From Aureitalea sp. L0-47 (GTDB taxonomy: Bacteria; Bacteroidota; Bacteroidia; Flavobacteriales; Flavobacteriaceae): a stretch of DNA of 64,000 nt. Below the pieces are notes generated by a model. That model had not been told where the DNA came from and ran no database searches. It saw nothing but the letters and a program-made list of their open reading frames with translations. The translations under genes and the position numbers were made by a program. Below are positions 1 to 7,439 of the stretch, one piece after another (positions within the stretch are counted from its first letter, which is position 1; every line of letters starts with the position of its first letter). The DNA lies in NCBI RefSeq assembly GCF_026126405.1, contig NZ_JAFMTQ010000001.1, positions 194,610 through 258,609 on the forward strand, in the 5' to 3' direction.

Positions 1-319
1 TAAGGCAACGACTTCCATGGAATTCCTTTTACAGGGAACTCAAACGATCAATAACCAGGTCATTAACCTGATAGATGTTGAAGAATTCGACGACAATGCC
101 ATCTTTTTCAGAGGAGGCGCCGGTTTGAGCTATCCGCTAACCGAGAACAGCAGCGTATACCTTCAGTACCTGTACGGTGAAAGTCTTGGATTGAATGATG
201 ATAATGGTGGCAGTACCAGTCAGGAAGAACTGCGAATTCAAACACATATGGTTGGTATCGGGATGCGTATCTCGATTCCTTCAAAGAAAGATGAAGAACA
301 AATCGATTCAGAAGAATAA
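1..319 (+). CDS. C-terminal fragment of an outer-membrane beta-barrel-like protein (gene begins left of window)
   Basis: Reading frame is open to the window edge. The alternating hydrophobic/polar segment (GGAGLSYPLTENSSVYLQYLYG) is typical of OMP beta strands. It ends with an acidic tail. Confidence 0.35.
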   Translation, partial: KATTSMEFLLQGTQTINNQVINLIDVEEFDDNAIFFRGGAGLSYPLTENSSVYLQYLYGESLGLNDDNGGSTSQEELRIQTHMVGIGMRISIPSKKDEEQIDSEE

Positions 320-331
320 AAGGAATTACTT

Positions 332-3300
332 ATGAAAAAATTAACCCTACTTTTCGTATTGCTGGTAAGCACATTTATCGCTTCGGCTCAGACAGACGGT
401 CTTAGCTATCAGGCGGTGATACTAGATCCTGAAGCACAGGAAATTCCGGGACAGGACATCACCAATAATGTGCTTATCAATAGTCCTGTTACAGTTCGTT
501 TTACAATTCTGAAACGCGACGGAACAACGCTTTACAGCGAAACTCAAAACACAAACACCGATTCTTTCGGAATGATTAGTCTAATCATTGGACAGGGAGC
601 TCCTACCAATGGTTTGTTTACCGAAATAGAATGGGATGGAGTGCCCAAAAACCTGCAGGTCGACATCAGCCTGGATGGTAATTTTAAACTGCTGAACAAA
701 GAGCCGTTAACATTTATACCATATGCTTTTCACCGAAATATTACAGCTACAGGAACATTGAGAGTGGATGGGGAGACGCTTCTTAATGATAACCTGGTGG
801 TTAATGGGGAAACCATTCTGAACGATGCTTTATCGGTAAATAATGAAAGCCCTTCAAACTTTACAGGGACCTTAGTGGTTGGTGGAACAACAACGCTGAA
901 CAATTCCCTGTCTGTGATAAACGAGAGCCCAACATTACTTACTGGAACACTTGATGTGGATGGAGCTACCCGACTTAACAGCACGCTGAATGTAGAAGAT
1001 GCTACTCAACTAAACAGTACACTTACGGTGGATGGGGAATCTACCCTGAATAGTTCACTTACTGTGGCAAATGAGAGCGCTACTTTTCTGTCGGGGTCAC
1101 TAACTGTAATTGGTGTTACCGACCTCAATAACGCAGTGAACATTAATAACGGGAGTCCTTTGAATGTAACAGGTAATCTGAATGTGGACGGTTCAACCAC
1201 ATTGAACGATGATCTAACCGTTAATGGAGACACCAATCTTAATAGTTTATTAAATGTAAACAATAGTAGCCCTTCGAATTTATCCGGAACATTGGATGTA
1301 GATGGAGCCACGACGCTGGGGAGTAGTTTACAAGTGCTTGGGCAGACCAACCTCGAGGATTTGCTTAATGTAAACAACCAAAGCCCAACCAATCTTAGCG
1401 GTAGTCTTACTGTAGATGGAGATACTAATTTGAATAGCAGTTTATCTGTGAACAATGGCGCACCTACATTCCTTTCAGGAACTTTGGACGTGCTTGGAGC
1501 GATCACTCTAAATAACAATCTCACCGTAAACGGTGTGACCAATCTGAATGACGATTTATTTGTAAATAACCAAAGTGCTACTTTTCTTTCCGGCAACTTG
1601 AATGTGGAAGGGGCAACGAGTTTAGATGATATACTCATCGTTCAAGGTGAAACAACCCTGCAAGATGATCTAACTGTGGCTAATGGGTCTTCGACTTTAC
1701 TTACTGGCTCACTCGATGTTAATTTGGAAGCCACATTGAACAACTCGCTGGACGTTACCAATGAAAGCCCAACCACATTAACCGGAACACTTAACGTAGA
1801 CGGTGAAACGACCTTGAATAATAATTTGGAAGTTGCAAATCAAAGCCCTACTGCATTAACAGGAACCCTAACCGTTGAGGGTATAAGTTCATTCTTGAAT
1901 TCGGTGAATGTTGAAAATCAAAGCCCCACGAATATGTCGGGGACATTAACAGTAGAAGGCGAAACCTTCCTTCGTAACACTCTCAACGTGAATAACCAAA
2001 GTGAATCCAACCTCGACGGAGATCTCAACGTAAATGGAGTTGCAACCTTCGATGACCAGGTAACCATAAACGGAGCAACCACCATCAACAATGATATGAC
2101 GGTTACAGGTACTGCTTTATTGGGTAGCATTTCTACTGAAACCATCGCGGTGGAGAGTAATAATTCAGGTTATGTGGCGACGTTTACCAACACAAACGCC
2201 GGAAACGGTGATGGAATACTTATCAAACTTGGGCGTAACTATGGCCTAAATGGAATTACTCCTTTACCAAATCCTTACCTTGATCAGGGTCCGAATGCAA
2301 ATCCGCTTTACTCAGAGGCAATTGCGCTGATGAAGGCCCAACTAGCCAGTCCCGGAGATATAACCCCGGCAGAGATCATAGGTGGTTTTGGTACGAGCGT
2401 AAATAACTTAAGGAGCGGTGCAATAGTAGCTGTGAACGATTTTGTTTTCAACCAGATAAATGGTTCGTTCGGAATGACGCCCACTAATGGAATAGACTTG
2501 CCGGGTGTATCTTTTCCGGTAACCAATATTCTTCAGGGGGCACAGATCTTTGGAGGTGTGACTATTCCTTTTGTAGGTATTACCATACCCGAAATAAATT
2601 TACCAAGTATAGACATTCTCCCGCAAAAACCAGGATTGCCTCCGGGTGTTTTGAATGCCGTAGTGCCGGATTTCATTCCCGGACTGCCTGTTTCACCTAA
2701 TAACGGCGGGCTGCCTCCGGTAACCATTCCGTTCATCCCGGCAGATGATGTGCCTATCTCGTTGTCTAAAGAGAATGTTTACGTCTCGTTCCGTGACACC
2801 AACGACCTGATCACAGGAGAGATCCGAGGCCAGTCCATCAGTGACTTTTATGCTTCCACAGTTTGTGACCCGGTATACTTACTGAATGTTGTTAGCTCGT
2901 TTGTTGGAGTCGATCTTCTGGATGGACTTACGGCAGGTGCTGTGGAATTAACCAACCTGGTTGATGCCTTTAATAAAATTGGAGTAGAGTACTCTTCCGG
3001 AAATGGGGATTACGCAGAATGGCTTGAACGACTTGACCCTTCCGAATACCTAACTGCAGGAGATATTGTTGCAGTAAAGGGAGGAAAGATAACAAAGGAC
3101 CTAAACGAACTAGAACAGATCATGGTAGTCTCACACAGGCCTATCATTCTTGGAAATGTGCCGGAAGAAGGAAAAGAAGGACTAGGTAACAACGTTGCAT
3201 TTATGGGACAAGTTCCTGTAAAAGTAATGGGGCCGGTGCGCTCCGGTGATTTCATTGTGGCACGAGCCGACATCTCCGGTTATGGTAAAGCGATTGCCTT

Positions 3301-3541
3301 GCAGGATATGACCTCGGAGGATTTTGTACTTGCTGTGGGTAGATCGTGGGAAGAAAACCTCAACCCTGGACCGAAGATGGTCAACACTGTTGTAGGTGTA
3401 CATAATGGTGACTGGGCCAATATCATGAAAAAACTTGAAGCCAAACAACGCTCTTACGAACAAAAGTTCAGGGCAATTGAGGCCCAGGTGGAAGCTTTGG
3501 AAGACAGAGCAGATGAATTGCTAATAGAATCCAATAAATAA
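332..3541 (+). CDS. Large secreted beta-helix-like repeat protein (fibre/adhesin-like), paralog 1
   Basis: Signal peptide MKKLTLLFVLLVSTFIASAQ. About 38 degenerate units of pattern L-x-V-x-G-x-T-x-L-N (12/12/14 aa periodicity). Pro-rich linker. Conserved ~260-aa C-terminal module ending in a heptad coiled coil. Confidence 0.85.
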   Translation: MKKLTLLFVLLVSTFIASAQTDGLSYQAVILDPEAQEIPGQDITNNVLINSPVTVRFTILKRDGTTLYSETQNTNTDSFGMISLIIGQGAPTNGLFTEIEWDGVPKNLQVDISLDGNFKLLNKEPLTFIPYAFHRNITATGTLRVDGETLLNDNLVVNGETILNDALSVNNESPSNFTGTLVVGGTTTLNNSLSVINESPTLLTGTLDVDGATRLNSTLNVEDATQLNSTLTVDGESTLNSSLTVANESATFLSGSLTVIGVTDLNNAVNINNGSPLNVTGNLNVDGSTTLNDDLTVNGDTNLNSLLNVNNSSPSNLSGTLDVDGATTLGSSLQVLGQTNLEDLLNVNNQSPTNLSGSLTVDGDTNLNSSLSVNNGAPTFLSGTLDVLGAITLNNNLTVNGVTNLNDDLFVNNQSATFLSGNLNVEGATSLDDILIVQGETTLQDDLTVANGSSTLLTGSLDVNLEATLNNSLDVTNESPTTLTGTLNVDGETTLNNNLEVANQSPTALTGTLTVEGISSFLNSVNVENQSPTNMSGTLTVEGETFLRNTLNVNNQSESNLDGDLNVNGVATFDDQVTINGATTINNDMTVTGTALLGSISTETIAVESNNSGYVATFTNTNAGNGDGILIKLGRNYGLNGITPLPNPYLDQGPNANPLYSEAIALMKAQLASPGDITPAEIIGGFGTSVNNLRSGAIVAVNDFVFNQINGSFGMTPTNGIDLPGVSFPVTNILQGAQIFGGVTIPFVGITIPEINLPSIDILPQKPGLPPGVLNAVVPDFIPGLPVSPNNGGLPPVTIPFIPADDVPISLSKENVYVSFRDTNDLITGEIRGQSISDFYASTVCDPVYLLNVVSSFVGVDLLDGLTAGAVELTNLVDAFNKIGVEYSSGNGDYAEWLERLDPSEYLTAGDIVAVKGGKITKDLNELEQIMVVSHRPIILGNVPEEGKEGLGNNVAFMGQVPVKVMGPVRSGDFIVARADISGYGKAIALQDMTSEDFVLAVGRSWEENLNPGPKMVNTVVGVHNGDWANIMKKLEAKQRSYEQKFRAIEAQVEALEDRADELLIESNK
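740..2132 (+). repeat. Intragenic degenerate tandem repeats (36-42 nt units) encoding LxVxGxTxLN beta-helix-like turns
   Basis: Protein-level periodicity is read directly. The region also generates many spurious antisense ORFs rich in S/T/P/V. Confidence 0.6.
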
Positions 3542-3550
3542 GGAGCTGTT

Positions 3551-6500
3551 ATGAAAAGATTTCTAATAATCATAGTCATATTGTCTGGAATTAGCGGACT
3601 GGCTCAAACCGACGGGCTTGTCTACCAGGCAACTATACTCGATCCAAATGCACAGCAGGTCCCTGGTCAGGATATCACAGGGAATGTGCTTCCTGATACA
3701 GACCTTTTACTTCGCTTCACGGTTACATCCGAGTTAAACGGAGTTGAATTTCAGGAAGTACAGGAAACCAGAACCGATGCCTATGGAATGGTGAAAGTGA
3801 TCATCGGGCAGGGAGATGCCGTTATAGGAAATTTTGATGAAATCGATTGGAACGGAGCTCGCAAAGACCTAAATGTCGATCTCAATCTAAATGGAGAATT
3901 CGTGGCGCTGAGTAGTCAGCAATTATTATTTCTGCCGTATTCCTTCCACCGAAATATTACTGCTACCGGAACCGTAACTGTGGACAGGGATGCTTTGTTC
4001 AAAGACAGGCTTGTGGTAGATGGAGTGACAGACCTGAATGGTTTGCTTAGTGTTCGAAACTTTAGCCCCGTAGACCTTACAGGCTCCATGGAAGTTGGAC
4101 TTCCCACCACCTTGAAAGATTCATTGTTGGTGAACCAGGAGGCGCCTACTTTTCTAAATGGGACTTTAAGAGTAGATCAGGAAACACAACTAAATAGTAC
4201 CCTTGAGGTTGGGGAAGCCACGAGACTGGCAAGTACATTGGAGGTCACCGAAGCAACGGTAATGAATGATAACTTAAAAGTTACCCAGCAAAGCCCAACG
4301 CTTCTAACCGGGACACTTGAAGTTGACGGGATTACTAATTTTAATAATACCGTTAATATCAATAATGGAAGTCCTCTGAATTTATCCGGTGATCTTACCG
4401 TAGACGGAGAAGTGATCTTTGATAATGACCTAACTGTTCAAGGCGATACGAATCTGAACAGCTCCCTTTCGGTGAATAATATGAGTCCCACAAATTTGTC
4501 GGGAACATTGAATACGAGTGGACAAACCACTTTGAATGATGTGTTGTTGGTAAATGGTGCAACCAATCTGGACAACCTGTTGAACGTTAATAACGCAAGT
4601 CCAACCAACCTTTCAGGAACACTCACTGTAGACCTGGCAACCAACCTCAACAGTGCATTGAATGTAAACAATGGGAGCCCTACTTTGCTTACCGGGCCAT
4701 TGAATGTGAATGGTGAGATCGACTTCGGAAATGACCTTGAAGTGAACGGCATCACAAATCTCAATGACGAGCTTATTGTTAATAACGGTAGTGCTACCGC
4801 ATTATCCGGAAACTTGAATACGGATGGAGAAACAGCATTGAACAGTACATTAGAAGTGGTAGGGACGACTACTTTGAATAATGACCTTACAGTTGCCGAT
4901 CAATCCAGTACAGTTTTATCGGGTATGCTCACGGTGGATGGTCCTAGTACATTCAATGTTTCATTGGATGTTGAGAATTCAAGTCCAACAGGCTTAAACG
5001 GACGTCTATCGGTAGATGGAATCACTACATTTCAGAATGATCTTACCGTAGCCAATACGGCATCATCATTATTTACAGGGGAGTTCGTTGTGGATGGCGT
5101 ATCCACCATGAATAATGAACTAAGAGTCGATAATTCGGCCCAAACAAAGCTTACCGGGCTGTTGGATGTTGAAGGAGTGACAGCGTTGAATAACGCGTTG
5201 AATGTTACGAATGGTAATACTACAAACATGTCAGGGGAACTAAACGTGGCTGGGTTGAGTACCTTTAATAATCTGGTAAACATTTCCGGATTTACATTTA
5301 TTCAAAATGATCTTACGGTTACCGGATTGTCCGATATACGAACGCTTCAGGCAGGTTCGATCTCAATTGAAAGTGACTCGGCCGAATTCGTCGCATCTTT
5401 TTCAAACACCAGTGATTTTACAAACGGAGATGGTATAAAGATCACTTTGGGGAATAATCACGGAAGATTTCTAAACGGTGGTGTGTTCAAAATAGACCAA
5501 ACCCTTGTGAGTAACGACCCGGGAGCACAGAATCCACCCCCAGCTACAGATCCAACTTATGTTACGGCTTTCAATACCTTAAAGCAGGCACTCGTAAATA
5601 ACTCACCTCAGTTTTCAGTGAACGATGTGATCGCCTTACTACCATCTTTCCGAAATTATTCGATAGCCAATATTAACAACCTGTTACTTCAGGAGATAAA
5701 TGCCCAGTTAGGCCTTCCTAAGAATTTACCCAGTGTTGTTTCACCTTCATTCTTCATAGATCAGGTTATACCTCCGGGAAGTCCATCACTTTCATTGCCG
5801 TTAACTGTATTCCCCGGAATTAATGGGGCGTGTTCGGGGCAATCGTGCTTTAGTGTATGTGTTCCTTTTGCAGGCTGTGTGACGGTTTGTGTACCACCCG
5901 TAAATGTATGTGTGCCGGATATTCCTCCTTTGGTAATCCCTGAACTCTTTGCACCTGCGCTTACGCTCCAGGGAACCATTCCAAATTTCTTACCATCCCT
6001 ACCGTTTCTGCAGGAACCGGGTATACCTTCTGTGCTGATTCCAAATATACCCACAGTGAATATTACTGAAACCCTGTCTTCGGAAAATCACTATTTAACT
6101 TTCCAGGATGTGAATGATGTTCAAACGGGAGCGGTAAAAGCACAGTCCATCGAAGATTTTGCCAATAATACACTTTTGGATGACGTATATGTCTTCAATG
6201 TGGCAAGTAATTTTATAGGAATTGATCTTGCCGATGGAATTTCGAGTGGAGCTTCCGCCATAGTAGGATTGATTAGTGAATTCAACAAATTAGGAGTTGA
6301 ATACGCATCAGGAAACGGAGATTATTCAGAGTGGTTGGAGCGAGTTGATGTAAACGAATATCTGACTGCTGGTGACATCATTGCCGTAAAAGGTGGAAAG
6401 ATAACAAAGGATTATAATGGGTACGAACAACTGATGATCGTTTCCCACAGGCCCATTGTACTTGGGAACGCACCCCAGAAGGGAAGGGAGCATTTAGGAA

Positions 6501-6865
6501 ATACCATTGCCTTTATCGGACAAGTTCCTGCCAAGGTAATTGGGCCGGTAAAACGCGGTGATTATATCGTTGCGAGAAGCGAGTTCCAAGGCTATGGTGT
6601 AGCTGTAAGCCCTTCGGAAATGACAACTGAAGACTTCAGAATGGCTGTAGGAAGATCCTGGGAAGAAAACCTGAATCAAGGCCCAAAGATGGTTAACACA
6701 GTTGTCGGAATTCAGAACGGTGACTTCAGGTCACGAGTTGAAAAGCTTCAGAAAGAACAACGGCAATTAGACAATTCAATAGAAACCTTAGAATCGAAAT
6801 TAGAGCGAATTGCCCAAAAGCTATCGCTTTCAGAAAATAGCAATGATTATGCGAGTAACAAATAG
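3551..6865 (+). CDS. Large secreted beta-helix-like repeat protein, paralog 2, with Cys-rich VCVP insert
   Basis: Signal peptide MKRFLIIIVILSGISGLAQ. Same three-part architecture as 332-3541. The N-domain (TDGLxYQAxILDP...PYxFHRNITATGT) and C-domain (SGNGDYxEWLER...GDIxAVKGGKITKD...VGRSWEENLN) align closely with paralog 1. Confidence 0.85.
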   Translation: MKRFLIIIVILSGISGLAQTDGLVYQATILDPNAQQVPGQDITGNVLPDTDLLLRFTVTSELNGVEFQEVQETRTDAYGMVKVIIGQGDAVIGNFDEIDWNGARKDLNVDLNLNGEFVALSSQQLLFLPYSFHRNITATGTVTVDRDALFKDRLVVDGVTDLNGLLSVRNFSPVDLTGSMEVGLPTTLKDSLLVNQEAPTFLNGTLRVDQETQLNSTLEVGEATRLASTLEVTEATVMNDNLKVTQQSPTLLTGTLEVDGITNFNNTVNINNGSPLNLSGDLTVDGEVIFDNDLTVQGDTNLNSSLSVNNMSPTNLSGTLNTSGQTTLNDVLLVNGATNLDNLLNVNNASPTNLSGTLTVDLATNLNSALNVNNGSPTLLTGPLNVNGEIDFGNDLEVNGITNLNDELIVNNGSATALSGNLNTDGETALNSTLEVVGTTTLNNDLTVADQSSTVLSGMLTVDGPSTFNVSLDVENSSPTGLNGRLSVDGITTFQNDLTVANTASSLFTGEFVVDGVSTMNNELRVDNSAQTKLTGLLDVEGVTALNNALNVTNGNTTNMSGELNVAGLSTFNNLVNISGFTFIQNDLTVTGLSDIRTLQAGSISIESDSAEFVASFSNTSDFTNGDGIKITLGNNHGRFLNGGVFKIDQTLVSNDPGAQNPPPATDPTYVTAFNTLKQALVNNSPQFSVNDVIALLPSFRNYSIANINNLLLQEINAQLGLPKNLPSVVSPSFFIDQVIPPGSPSLSLPLTVFPGINGACSGQSCFSVCVPFAGCVTVCVPPVNVCVPDIPPLVIPELFAPALTLQGTIPNFLPSLPFLQEPGIPSVLIPNIPTVNITETLSSENHYLTFQDVNDVQTGAVKAQSIEDFANNTLLDDVYVFNVASNFIGIDLADGISSGASAIVGLISEFNKLGVEYASGNGDYSEWLERVDVNEYLTAGDIIAVKGGKITKDYNGYEQLMIVSHRPIVLGNAPQKGREHLGNTIAFIGQVPAKVIGPVKRGDYIVARSEFQGYGVAVSPSEMTTEDFRMAVGRSWEENLNQGPKMVNTVVGIQNGDFRSRVEKLQKEQRQLDNSIETLESKLERIAQKLSLSENSNDYASNK
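3959..5321 (+). repeat. Intragenic degenerate tandem repeats (same family as 740-2132)
   Basis: Same LxVxGxTxLN periodicity as paralog 1. Confidence 0.6.
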
Positions 6866-7439
6866 AATATATACTTTCCTGCTTGTTGGTTTCCTTATGA
6901 TGGGAACTGCAAGGTCTCAGGAAACTACCGAAGGATATACTTTTTCAAAAGAAGAACTGGCGCAGCTAAAATTGCAGAAGGAAAAGATGGATGAATGGAT
7001 AACCGTGCTGGAGACTCCTGGTGTTCGAATTGAGGGTAGTAAAATGATCTTCAGTGATGAAGCACAGAAGCTTATTAGCGATCACAACTACAGGATTAGT
7101 TGTTATCGTGAAGCCGGATATACATTTGCAGATGTGCAGGTAAGTTTGCAAAACAACGAATTACAAAAGGCTTTCTGGCAAATGATCAACCTGTATCCCG
7201 ACCACAAAGAGGAAGTATTGAAATACATATATGCCTACGACAATGTATTGCAAACGGATAAGGTGGTGACGGCTGCTTTTTACACCTATGGCTTTTTCGA
7301 CCCGGCAATAACTAAAATAGATAATGGAAGACCGGATGTATATCGCCCGGACCTCTTTGAAGGGCATTTGAAAAGTACCCGTGAAATCGTTTCGTACATA
7401 CTCTATTTCCGCAAGCAGAAAGAGCAGAAGCAAATTTAA
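6843..7439 (+). CDS. Small secreted hypothetical protein, start overlapping the end of paralog 2
   Basis: Signal-peptide-like MIMRVTNRIYTFLLVGFLMMGTARSQ. Overlaps the upstream stop codon by ~20 nt, so it is likely co-transcribed. An alternative start is at 6810. Confidence 0.55.
   Translation: MIMRVTNRIYTFLLVGFLMMGTARSQETTEGYTFSKEELAQLKLQKEKMDEWITVLETPGVRIEGSKMIFSDEAQKLISDHNYRISCYREAGYTFADVQVSLQNNELQKAFWQMINLYPDHKEEVLKYIYAYDNVLQTDKVVTAAFYTYGFFDPAITKIDNGRPDVYRPDLFEGHLKSTREIVSYILYFRKQKEQKQI

Follow-up and report, generated by a model that had tools for sequence, protein, structure and literature searches.

The stretch of DNA that we analysed, hereafter the window, comprises 64,000 nucleotides from Aureitalea sp. 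L0-47 (contig NZ_JAFMTQ010000001.1, positions 194,610 to 258,609). Close to its beginning it carries two tandem genes for paralogous fibre proteins, open reading frame (ORF) A at 332..3541 (1069 aa) and ORF B at 3551..6865 (1104 aa); these and all other window coordinates given below refer to the + strand. Both proteins end in a common module of ~256-260 aa. We conclude, with a probability of roughly four in five, that this module is an intramolecular chaperone of the Peptidase_G2 type, whose first described example is domain D4 of gp12, the pre-neck appendage or tail-spike protein of phage phi29, and that it terminates two Sec-exported fibre proteins, trimerises, cleaves itself from them and is shed. 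We assign the module to the Peptidase_G2 / gp12 D4 class because of its matches to the Pfam family PF11962, its profile-profile alignments (hhalign), its cleavage motif and its fold matches. An earlier reading of the sequence, referred to here as the original prediction, had flagged the module as probably something other than an S74 chaperone, that is, as an unknown module. It belongs instead to a domain class that has already been described, and for which a precise cleavage site can be predicted; the known G2 / gp12-D4 autochaperone occurs here in an uncharacterised bacterial fibre family.

Sequence and fold of the C-terminal module

Comparison of the two paralogues showed that the shared C-terminal module is real and well beyond chance. 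ORF A and ORF B could be aligned by BLASTP over their full lengths with 48% identity (E 0), and alignment of the modules gave 55.7% identity for the whole of the ~256-260 aa, 62.7% for the portion that precedes the coiled coil, and 70.1% for the core from GVEY to NGD. The existence of two tandem paralogues with a common C-terminal module was thereby confirmed, and the identity of "roughly 60-70%" that had been estimated for it was found to hold for the core but to be too high for the ~260 aa as a whole. All 4 sequence blocks that the original prediction had quoted are present in both proteins, the sole deviation being the first residue of block 1, which is I in ORF A and L in ORF B. They are also kept in homologues from other genomes, with strong conservation first in 36 and then in 141 relatives. 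On the other hand, the repeats that precede the module had been said to have diverged freely, and we observed that the paralogues share 55.9% identity with zero gaps over their repeats (aa 136-600), which makes this region about as conserved as the whole module; the divergent parts are instead the linker ahead of the module (ORF A aa 641-810; 24% identity to ORF B with 36 gap columns) and the coiled-coil tails (22% identity). A small correction concerns the start of the ORF B module, which had been placed at 6084, one base off frame; the codon begins at 6083. No third copy of the module was found within the 64-kb window.

For both modules the top Pfam match was PF11962, "Peptidase_G2, IMC autoproteolytic cleavage domain", with scores of 22.1 bits for ORF A (E 1.1e-4) and 17.9 bits for ORF B (E 2.2e-3), to be read against a gathering score of 25. 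The same model matched 34 of 36 relatives at E<=0.01 (best E 2.2e-9), and 36 of 58 database relatives carry it as a precomputed annotation. In gp12 of phage phi29, the founding member, PF11962 corresponds to residues 643-854, and the processing site of that protein, GGNTWS|DFAEYFESLDGQVIETGYLVTLEKGKIRKA, aligns with SGNG|DYAEWLERLDPSEYLTAGDIVAVKGGKITKD of the family. When the family profile was compared by hhalign with gp12 alone, G-D-Y-x-E was placed on S691-D692-F-A-E695 (E 0.0019). Comparison with a profile built from gp12, Dpo31 (the tail-spike of the marine podovirus Carin-1) and a protein of Sinorhizobium phage Phosso gave a probability of 96.9% and an E of 1.5e-10 over 91 columns; the alignment starts at the cleavage site and extends as far as the GQVPxKV..GDxIVA block, so that the third of the quoted blocks corresponds to gp12 GLLGQIAVRIDETVKQGHGIDA. 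The fourth block, VGRSWEENLNxGPKMVNTVVG, bears a visual resemblance to the strands at the C-termini of the phage proteins, such as VGRALADKLTDEEGTVLCVVG of Phosso. The original prediction had named a clear match to a characterised domain as the outcome that would tell against it, and Peptidase_G2 / gp12 D4 provides such a match, which is clear at the level of the family.

Several other candidates were considered and rejected. The module is not an S74 chaperone, as had been stated before: neither the full proteins nor their modules matched the S74 model PF13884 at E<=1, and the Ser-Lys motif (S-D-x-x-x-K) is absent from ORF A and ORF B. The best matches of the family profile among PDB sequences, at E 0.006, were SIMPL-domain proteins, and these were confined to the linker region and judged spurious. 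Single-sequence phmmer searches of PDB sequences with the module returned coiled-coil noise only, and weak Pfam matches of the tail to ABC_tran_CTD, Snapin_Pallidin, Matrilin_ccoil and FliD_C were ascribed to generic coiled-coil similarity. The precomputed annotation PF04519 (Bactofilin) on some relatives was taken to reflect beta-helix repeat similarity.

We used AlphaFold to model the module of ORF B, as a monomer only. A first model, computed from 36 sequences, had a predicted local distance difference test (pLDDT) score of 63 and gave weak beta-tulip and gp12 matches with E from 6e-3 to 0.1; the model computed from an alignment of 141 sequences (med28837c8d10) reached 88 overall and 95-98 in the beta domain. 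The best Foldseek matches of this model were to 3gqh_A (E 6.5e-5) and 3suc (E 1e-4), both of them gp12 structures, and by this measure the modelled beta domain has the D4 fold, that is, the fold of the beta-tulip domains. In gp12, D4 consists of tandem beta-tulips that serve as an autochaperone, and homologues of it have been noted both in PBCV-1 and among the adhesins of bacteria (bioRxiv 10.1101/216911). As a side observation, gp12 D4 also matched chain cU of PDB entry 8h2i ("P22", 1343 aa) at E 9.6e-6; this chain may correspond to the PBCV-1 minor capsid protein for which homology to D4 has been reported.

The model divides the module into 3 parts. The pre-cleavage part of ORF B (6083..6319) comprises a beta-hairpin, three helices and the sequence GVEYASGNG, with strands at module residues 2-8 and 14-20, helices at 23-29, 34-42 and 49-68, and a further strand at 72-76; its counterpart in ORF A (2771..3007), which ends in GVEYSSGNG, was delimited by alignment to the ORF B model. 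Next follows the gp12-D4-like beta domain, located at 6320..6715 in ORF B and at 3008..3403 in ORF A, where it is identified by PF11962 (E 1.1e-4), by hhalign and by homology to the ORF B model. Finally, module residues 212-257 of ORF B are predicted to form a C-terminal helix of 46 residues (6716..6853), whose clean heptad register of about 5 heptads, in which hydrophobic residues occupy 10 of 17 a/d positions, bears out the coiled coil that had been proposed for this region; the coiled coil of ORF A (3404..3538) was recognized from its heptad pattern and from its alignment with the ORF B helix.

Predicted self-cleavage and the readings that compete with it

The information on gp12 cleavage that we used was taken from the construct sequences of PDB entries. 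The mature N-terminal piece of gp12 (3gq7) has S691 as its last residue, the released fragment of 163 aa (3gqh) begins with D692, the Asp residue of DFAEYFE in this protein of 854 residues, and the uncleaved, "pre-mature" gp12 (3suc) reads DFAQYFE, i.e. it carries E695Q. The arrangement of gp12, S691|D692...E695, with Asp at P1' and Glu three residues downstream, is present in both ORF A (G|DYAEW) and ORF B (G|DYSEW). The D, Y and E of GDYxEW did not vary in any of 141 diverse relatives, and 138 of these have Gly before the Asp, at P1. Because of this invariance and the alignment to the gp12 and Dpo31 sites, we predict from the sequence that the scissile bond of ORF A is G892|D893 (Asp codon at 3008) and that of ORF B is G923|D924 (Asp codon at 6320), with Glu896 and Glu927, respectively, as the predicted catalytic residues. 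The motifs in question, SGNG|DYAEWLER (2996..3031) and SGNG|DYSEWLER (6308..6343), were located through the alignments and through motif conservation, and cleavage at the predicted sites would free 177 residues from ORF A and 181 residues from ORF B.

By analogy with gp12, the following course of events may be proposed. After Sec export, the coiled coil, together with the D4-like beta domain, would align three C-termini with one another, and the C-terminal trimer would nucleate folding of the long repeat fibre. A trimer-dependent active site would then sever the chain to which it belongs, immediately N-terminal to the invariant Asp of G|D-Y-x-E-W, with the invariant Glu three residues past this Asp (E896 / E927) as the putative catalytic residue, and the ~180 residues of beta domain and coiled coil would be shed. 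The mature fibre would thus end in ...GVEYxSGNG and present the helical element and the variable linker at its distal end, while the N-terminal domain, which resembles that of the mosaic adhesive trimer (MAT) fibres of Bdellovibrio, would be located at the cell surface. Folding and cleavage are placed outside the cytoplasm because the host proteins carry signal peptides. The match to Peptidase_G2 / gp12 D4 agrees with the earlier suggestion that the module is a folding or trimerisation device, trimerisation itself being deduced from the match.

A number of observations weigh against this interpretation. Both copies in the window score below the gathering threshold of PF11962 (22.1 and 17.9 as compared with 25 bits), and the family profile, when run against PDB sequences, did not retrieve gp12; it gave a faint match to Dpo31 D4, at E 2. 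The P1 residue is Gly in the module, as opposed to Ser or Ala in the phage proteins. An insertion of ~40 residues that gp12 and Dpo31 have in common is absent from the module, and it is absent from the Phosso protein too. The module in turn adds to the gp12 plan the pre-cleavage hairpin/helix element of ~79 residues, which lies outside the Pfam model and is not in gp12, as well as the C-terminal coiled coil of ~45 residues, which gp12 also does not have. Further, signal peptides would direct folding to a place outside the cytoplasm where there should be no ATP. Xiang et al. reportedly described, in 2009, an ATP-dependent release of D4 from phi29 gp12, and release of that type could not apply here. 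Motif, fold, position and conservation are direct observations, and it is from these that we infer cleavage, trimer formation and release.

Part of this evidence would also fit a module that has the D4 fold and yet is not cleaved, so that the mature fibre keeps its coiled coil and beta domain for good, as a cap or clamp that holds the trimer together. A C-terminal coiled coil is a typical stable trimerisation element, and gp12 has none; ATP to power a release would presumably be lacking outside the cytoplasm; and the P1 residue is unlike that of the phage proteins. Against such a cap, the Asp and Glu of the motif are invariant in 141 of 141 relatives, mutation of the equivalent Glu leaves gp12 uncleaved, and so strict a conservation of catalytic residues is not expected of a purely structural element. 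We therefore regard the uncleaved cap as improbable, although it is the most serious of the competing explanations.

The original prediction also allowed for a receptor-binding tip, and a receptor-binding or adhesive function would suit the distal position of the module on the fibre; moreover, C-terminal domains are the variable adhesive tips in Bdellovibrio MAT fibres (PMC10769870). Adhesive tips vary, however, and no part of the family is better conserved across Bacteroidota than the module, the variable region being the linker ahead of it. Its sequence and its fold match an autochaperone and not a lectin or binding domain, its cleavage motif is intact, and on cleavage it would leave the mature fibre. 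On these grounds, we consider a tip function very unlikely, and self-cleavage by a Peptidase_G2-type chaperone continues to be the interpretation that we favour.

The fibre genes, their family and their neighbours

ORF A and ORF B have a common layout, which consists of a Sec signal peptide ending in A-x-A|Q, an N-domain of ~115 residues, ~465 residues of repeats, an "NGDGIxIxLG" element, a Pro-rich linker and the module. The signal peptides, as read from the sequence, are MKKLTLLFVLLVSTFIASA|Q in ORF A (332..388) and MKRFLIIIVILSGISGLA|Q in ORF B (3551..3604), and the same signal-peptide pattern was seen in all 78 family N-termini. In ORF A the signal peptide is followed by a beta-rich N-terminal domain (389..736), for which the NCBIfam model NF053851 (Bdello_MAT_N; E 2.4e-7, 30.7 bits) indicates kinship with the N-domain of Bdellovibrio MAT fibres; the corresponding MAT_N-like domain of ORF B (3605..3952) was assigned from its 50% identity to that of ORF A and from the family-level matches to NF053851. 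This model matched 21 of 22 family N-termini, with a best E of 3.6e-11, all of them below the 60-bit cutoff of what is a Bdellovibrio-specific model. These sequence matches support homology of the fibre N-domain to the MAT N-domain, and do not support membership of the subfamily.

The fibre repeats of ORF A (737..2131) are built from units of 12 and 14 residues with super-periods of 26 and 38, and autocorrelation peaks were observed at 12, 14, 26 and 38. Those of ORF B (3953..5350) were delimited from autocorrelation, alignment to ORF A and PHROG matches. In both cases the repeats match PHROG families of tail fibres and structural proteins; for ORF A these are phrog_697 (E 1.9e-24) and phrog_4549. 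Between the repeats and the variable linker there is a conserved element (2132..2251 in ORF A, about 5351..5470 in ORF B). The junction sequence FxAxFxNTNxxxGDGxxIKLG occurs family-wide, even in short members without repeats (e.g. L081:6013-8001), and gave no family match. The Pro-rich linker of ORF A (2252..2770) is the region least conserved between the paralogues, at 24% identity with insertions and deletions, and that of ORF B (5471..6082) includes a Cys-rich stretch with 6 Cys, CSGQSCFSVCVPFAGCVTVCVPPVNVCVP, at aa 761-789 (5831..5917). ORF A has one Cys in the entire protein, and Cys-rich inserts similar to that of ORF B were seen in some relatives (P0001, P0002 and P0004).

The family is large, with 3151 representative clusters at E<=1e-3, and the source annotation of every member is "hypothetical protein". 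One-genome-per-species data yielded 155 loci, nearly all of them in Bacteroidota, together with one metagenome-assembled genome (MAG) from Ignavibacteria and one MAG labelled Alteromonas. In ~21 loci, mainly of Flavobacteriaceae, there are two fibre genes, and the upstream copy is nearest to ORF A and the downstream copy nearest to ORF B; the one exception to this order is L027, where the second copy is truncated by the contig end. Loci of Chitinophagaceae, Saprospiraceae and Cytophagales have a single fibre gene. The tandem duplication that gave rise to A and B is old. It may be speculated that the coiled-coil tails, which are 22% identical in comparison with 70% for the chaperone cores, prevent the formation of mixed A/B trimers. 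In Maribellus comscasis (L080:6842-7929) the fibre gene is split into an N-terminal piece of 252 aa and a piece of 107 aa that contains the module end only, next to an intact partner gene (see below); it is probably a pseudogene.

The fibre genes are tightly spaced. The window opens with the 3' end of an upstream gene (2..319, in frame 2 off the window edge, and truncated by the window start) for a small outer-membrane beta-barrel protein; 12 nucleotides separate it from ORF A and 9 nucleotides separate ORF A from ORF B. The full-length orthologue of the barrel gene product (L003:1717-2385; ~225 aa, 87% identical) matches Pfam OMP_b-brl PF13505 at E 2.4e-8. A barrel homologue was located just upstream of the fibre gene or genes in 26 of 77 related loci, mostly from Flavobacteriaceae with some from Marinoscillum/Flammeovirgaceae. 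At three loci of other Bacteroidota (L081:5423-5980 and L082:5423-5980, both on metagenome contigs, and L080:6349-6807 of Maribellus comscasis) the gene upstream of the fibre gene encodes no barrel and instead a protein of 150-185 aa with Por_Secre_tail, the C-terminal domain of type IX secretion. On the downstream side, the end of ORF B overlaps by 23 nucleotides with a gene at 6843..7439 for a signal-peptide protein of ~198 aa, which we call the partner. In 73 of the 77 loci across Bacteroidota, the last fibre gene is followed directly by a homologue of the partner gene. The partner family (~190 residues) is characterized by the conserved motif FYTYAFFDP...NGKPxIxRPD, and its 116 homologues are all annotated as "hypothetical"; neither the protein alone nor its profile gave a Pfam, NCBIfam or PDB sequence match.

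Beyond these genes, ORF A and ORF B are flanked by genes for an esterase, an LPG-synthase-like membrane protein, PanD, PanC, a starch-synthase-type glycosyltransferase and a DUF4270 protein, and the gene order around the fibre genes is the same in related Flavobacteriaceae loci. The two genes are chromosomal and are not part of a prophage. The idea that they are tail-fibre or tail-spike genes of a prophage or its remnants, with the module as a phage part in a phage context, draws on the PHROG matches of the repeats and on the fact that the module relatives with solved structures are phage proteins, but it can hardly be sustained in view of the Sec signal peptides on both proteins, the housekeeping neighbours whose order is kept in other Flavobacteriaceae loci, the result of a tblastn search of 50,697 phage records with the module, which gave a single weak match, to Sinorhizobium phage Phosso at E 1e-5, and the lack of phage genes beside the related loci examined.

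In the aggregate, these observations allow us to suggest, quite tentatively and with the odds against it, a widespread and uncharacterised surface-fibre system of Bacteroidota, in which an exported MAT-like fibre would be folded outside the cytoplasm by a phage G2-type autochaperone, and the cleaved autochaperone would be released or handled by an ATP-free mechanism unlike that of phi29. The partner, the outer-membrane barrel and the Por_Secre_tail protein would be candidates for a factor in release, in anchoring or in passage of the outer membrane. If such a system exists, it would also help in the search for the surface anchor of MAT-type fibres. The conserved partner gene offers a handle on fibre assembly or anchoring.

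Comparison with known systems

The closest described counterpart of the module is D4 of phi29 gp12 (MEROPS family G2, PF11962). The module lies at the C-terminus after tail-fibre-like repeats, the position expected of such a domain on a fibre or spike that would be trimeric. However, gp12 is part of a virion that is assembled in the cytoplasm, whereas ORF A and ORF B are chromosomal, Sec-exported bacterial fibres; a G2 autochaperone, known from cytoplasmically assembled phage spikes, would thus be used on exported bacterial fibres as well.

In Dpo31 of Carin-1 (PDB 28lx and 28nb), domain D4 starts at Asp664 and is lost from the expressed protein (PMC13317679). Its motif, A|DYAEYFE, is closer than that of gp12 to G|DYAEWLE of the module, and the corresponding motif of the Phosso protein is A|DLAERYE. 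Unlike the fibres described here, Dpo31 belongs to a phage virion, bears a depolymerase domain, is without a signal peptide, and contains the long insertion as gp12 does.

At the other end of the molecule, it is the N-domain that ties the Bacteroidota fibres to the MAT adhesins of Bdellovibrio. The MAT fibres of Bdellovibrio bacteriovorus are built to the same plan, with a signal peptide, a beta-rich N-domain of ~115-130 residues, a long fibre, and at the C-terminus either a chaperone that processes itself or a tip. Their C-termini are either S74 chaperone/proteases (SDxxxK) or non-S74 tips, and none has been reported with a G2 domain (PMC10769870). The G2-type C-terminus of ORF A and ORF B is therefore unlike the ends of MAT fibres, and the phylum, Bacteroidota, is also different.

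The Peptidase_S74 chaperones, which include those of endosialidase and T5 pb1 and the ICA domain of MyRF, do the same job, in that they are C-terminal, trimer-dependent and self-cleaving folding aids, yet they have a fold and catalytic residues (a Ser-Lys dyad) other than those of the module. Conversely, the beta-tulip decoration or cement proteins of capsids (such as those of HFTV1, Sf11, TW1 and Pam3) and the base of phi29 gp8.5 resemble the module in fold only; they are without the cleavage motif, and their role is the stabilisation of capsids.

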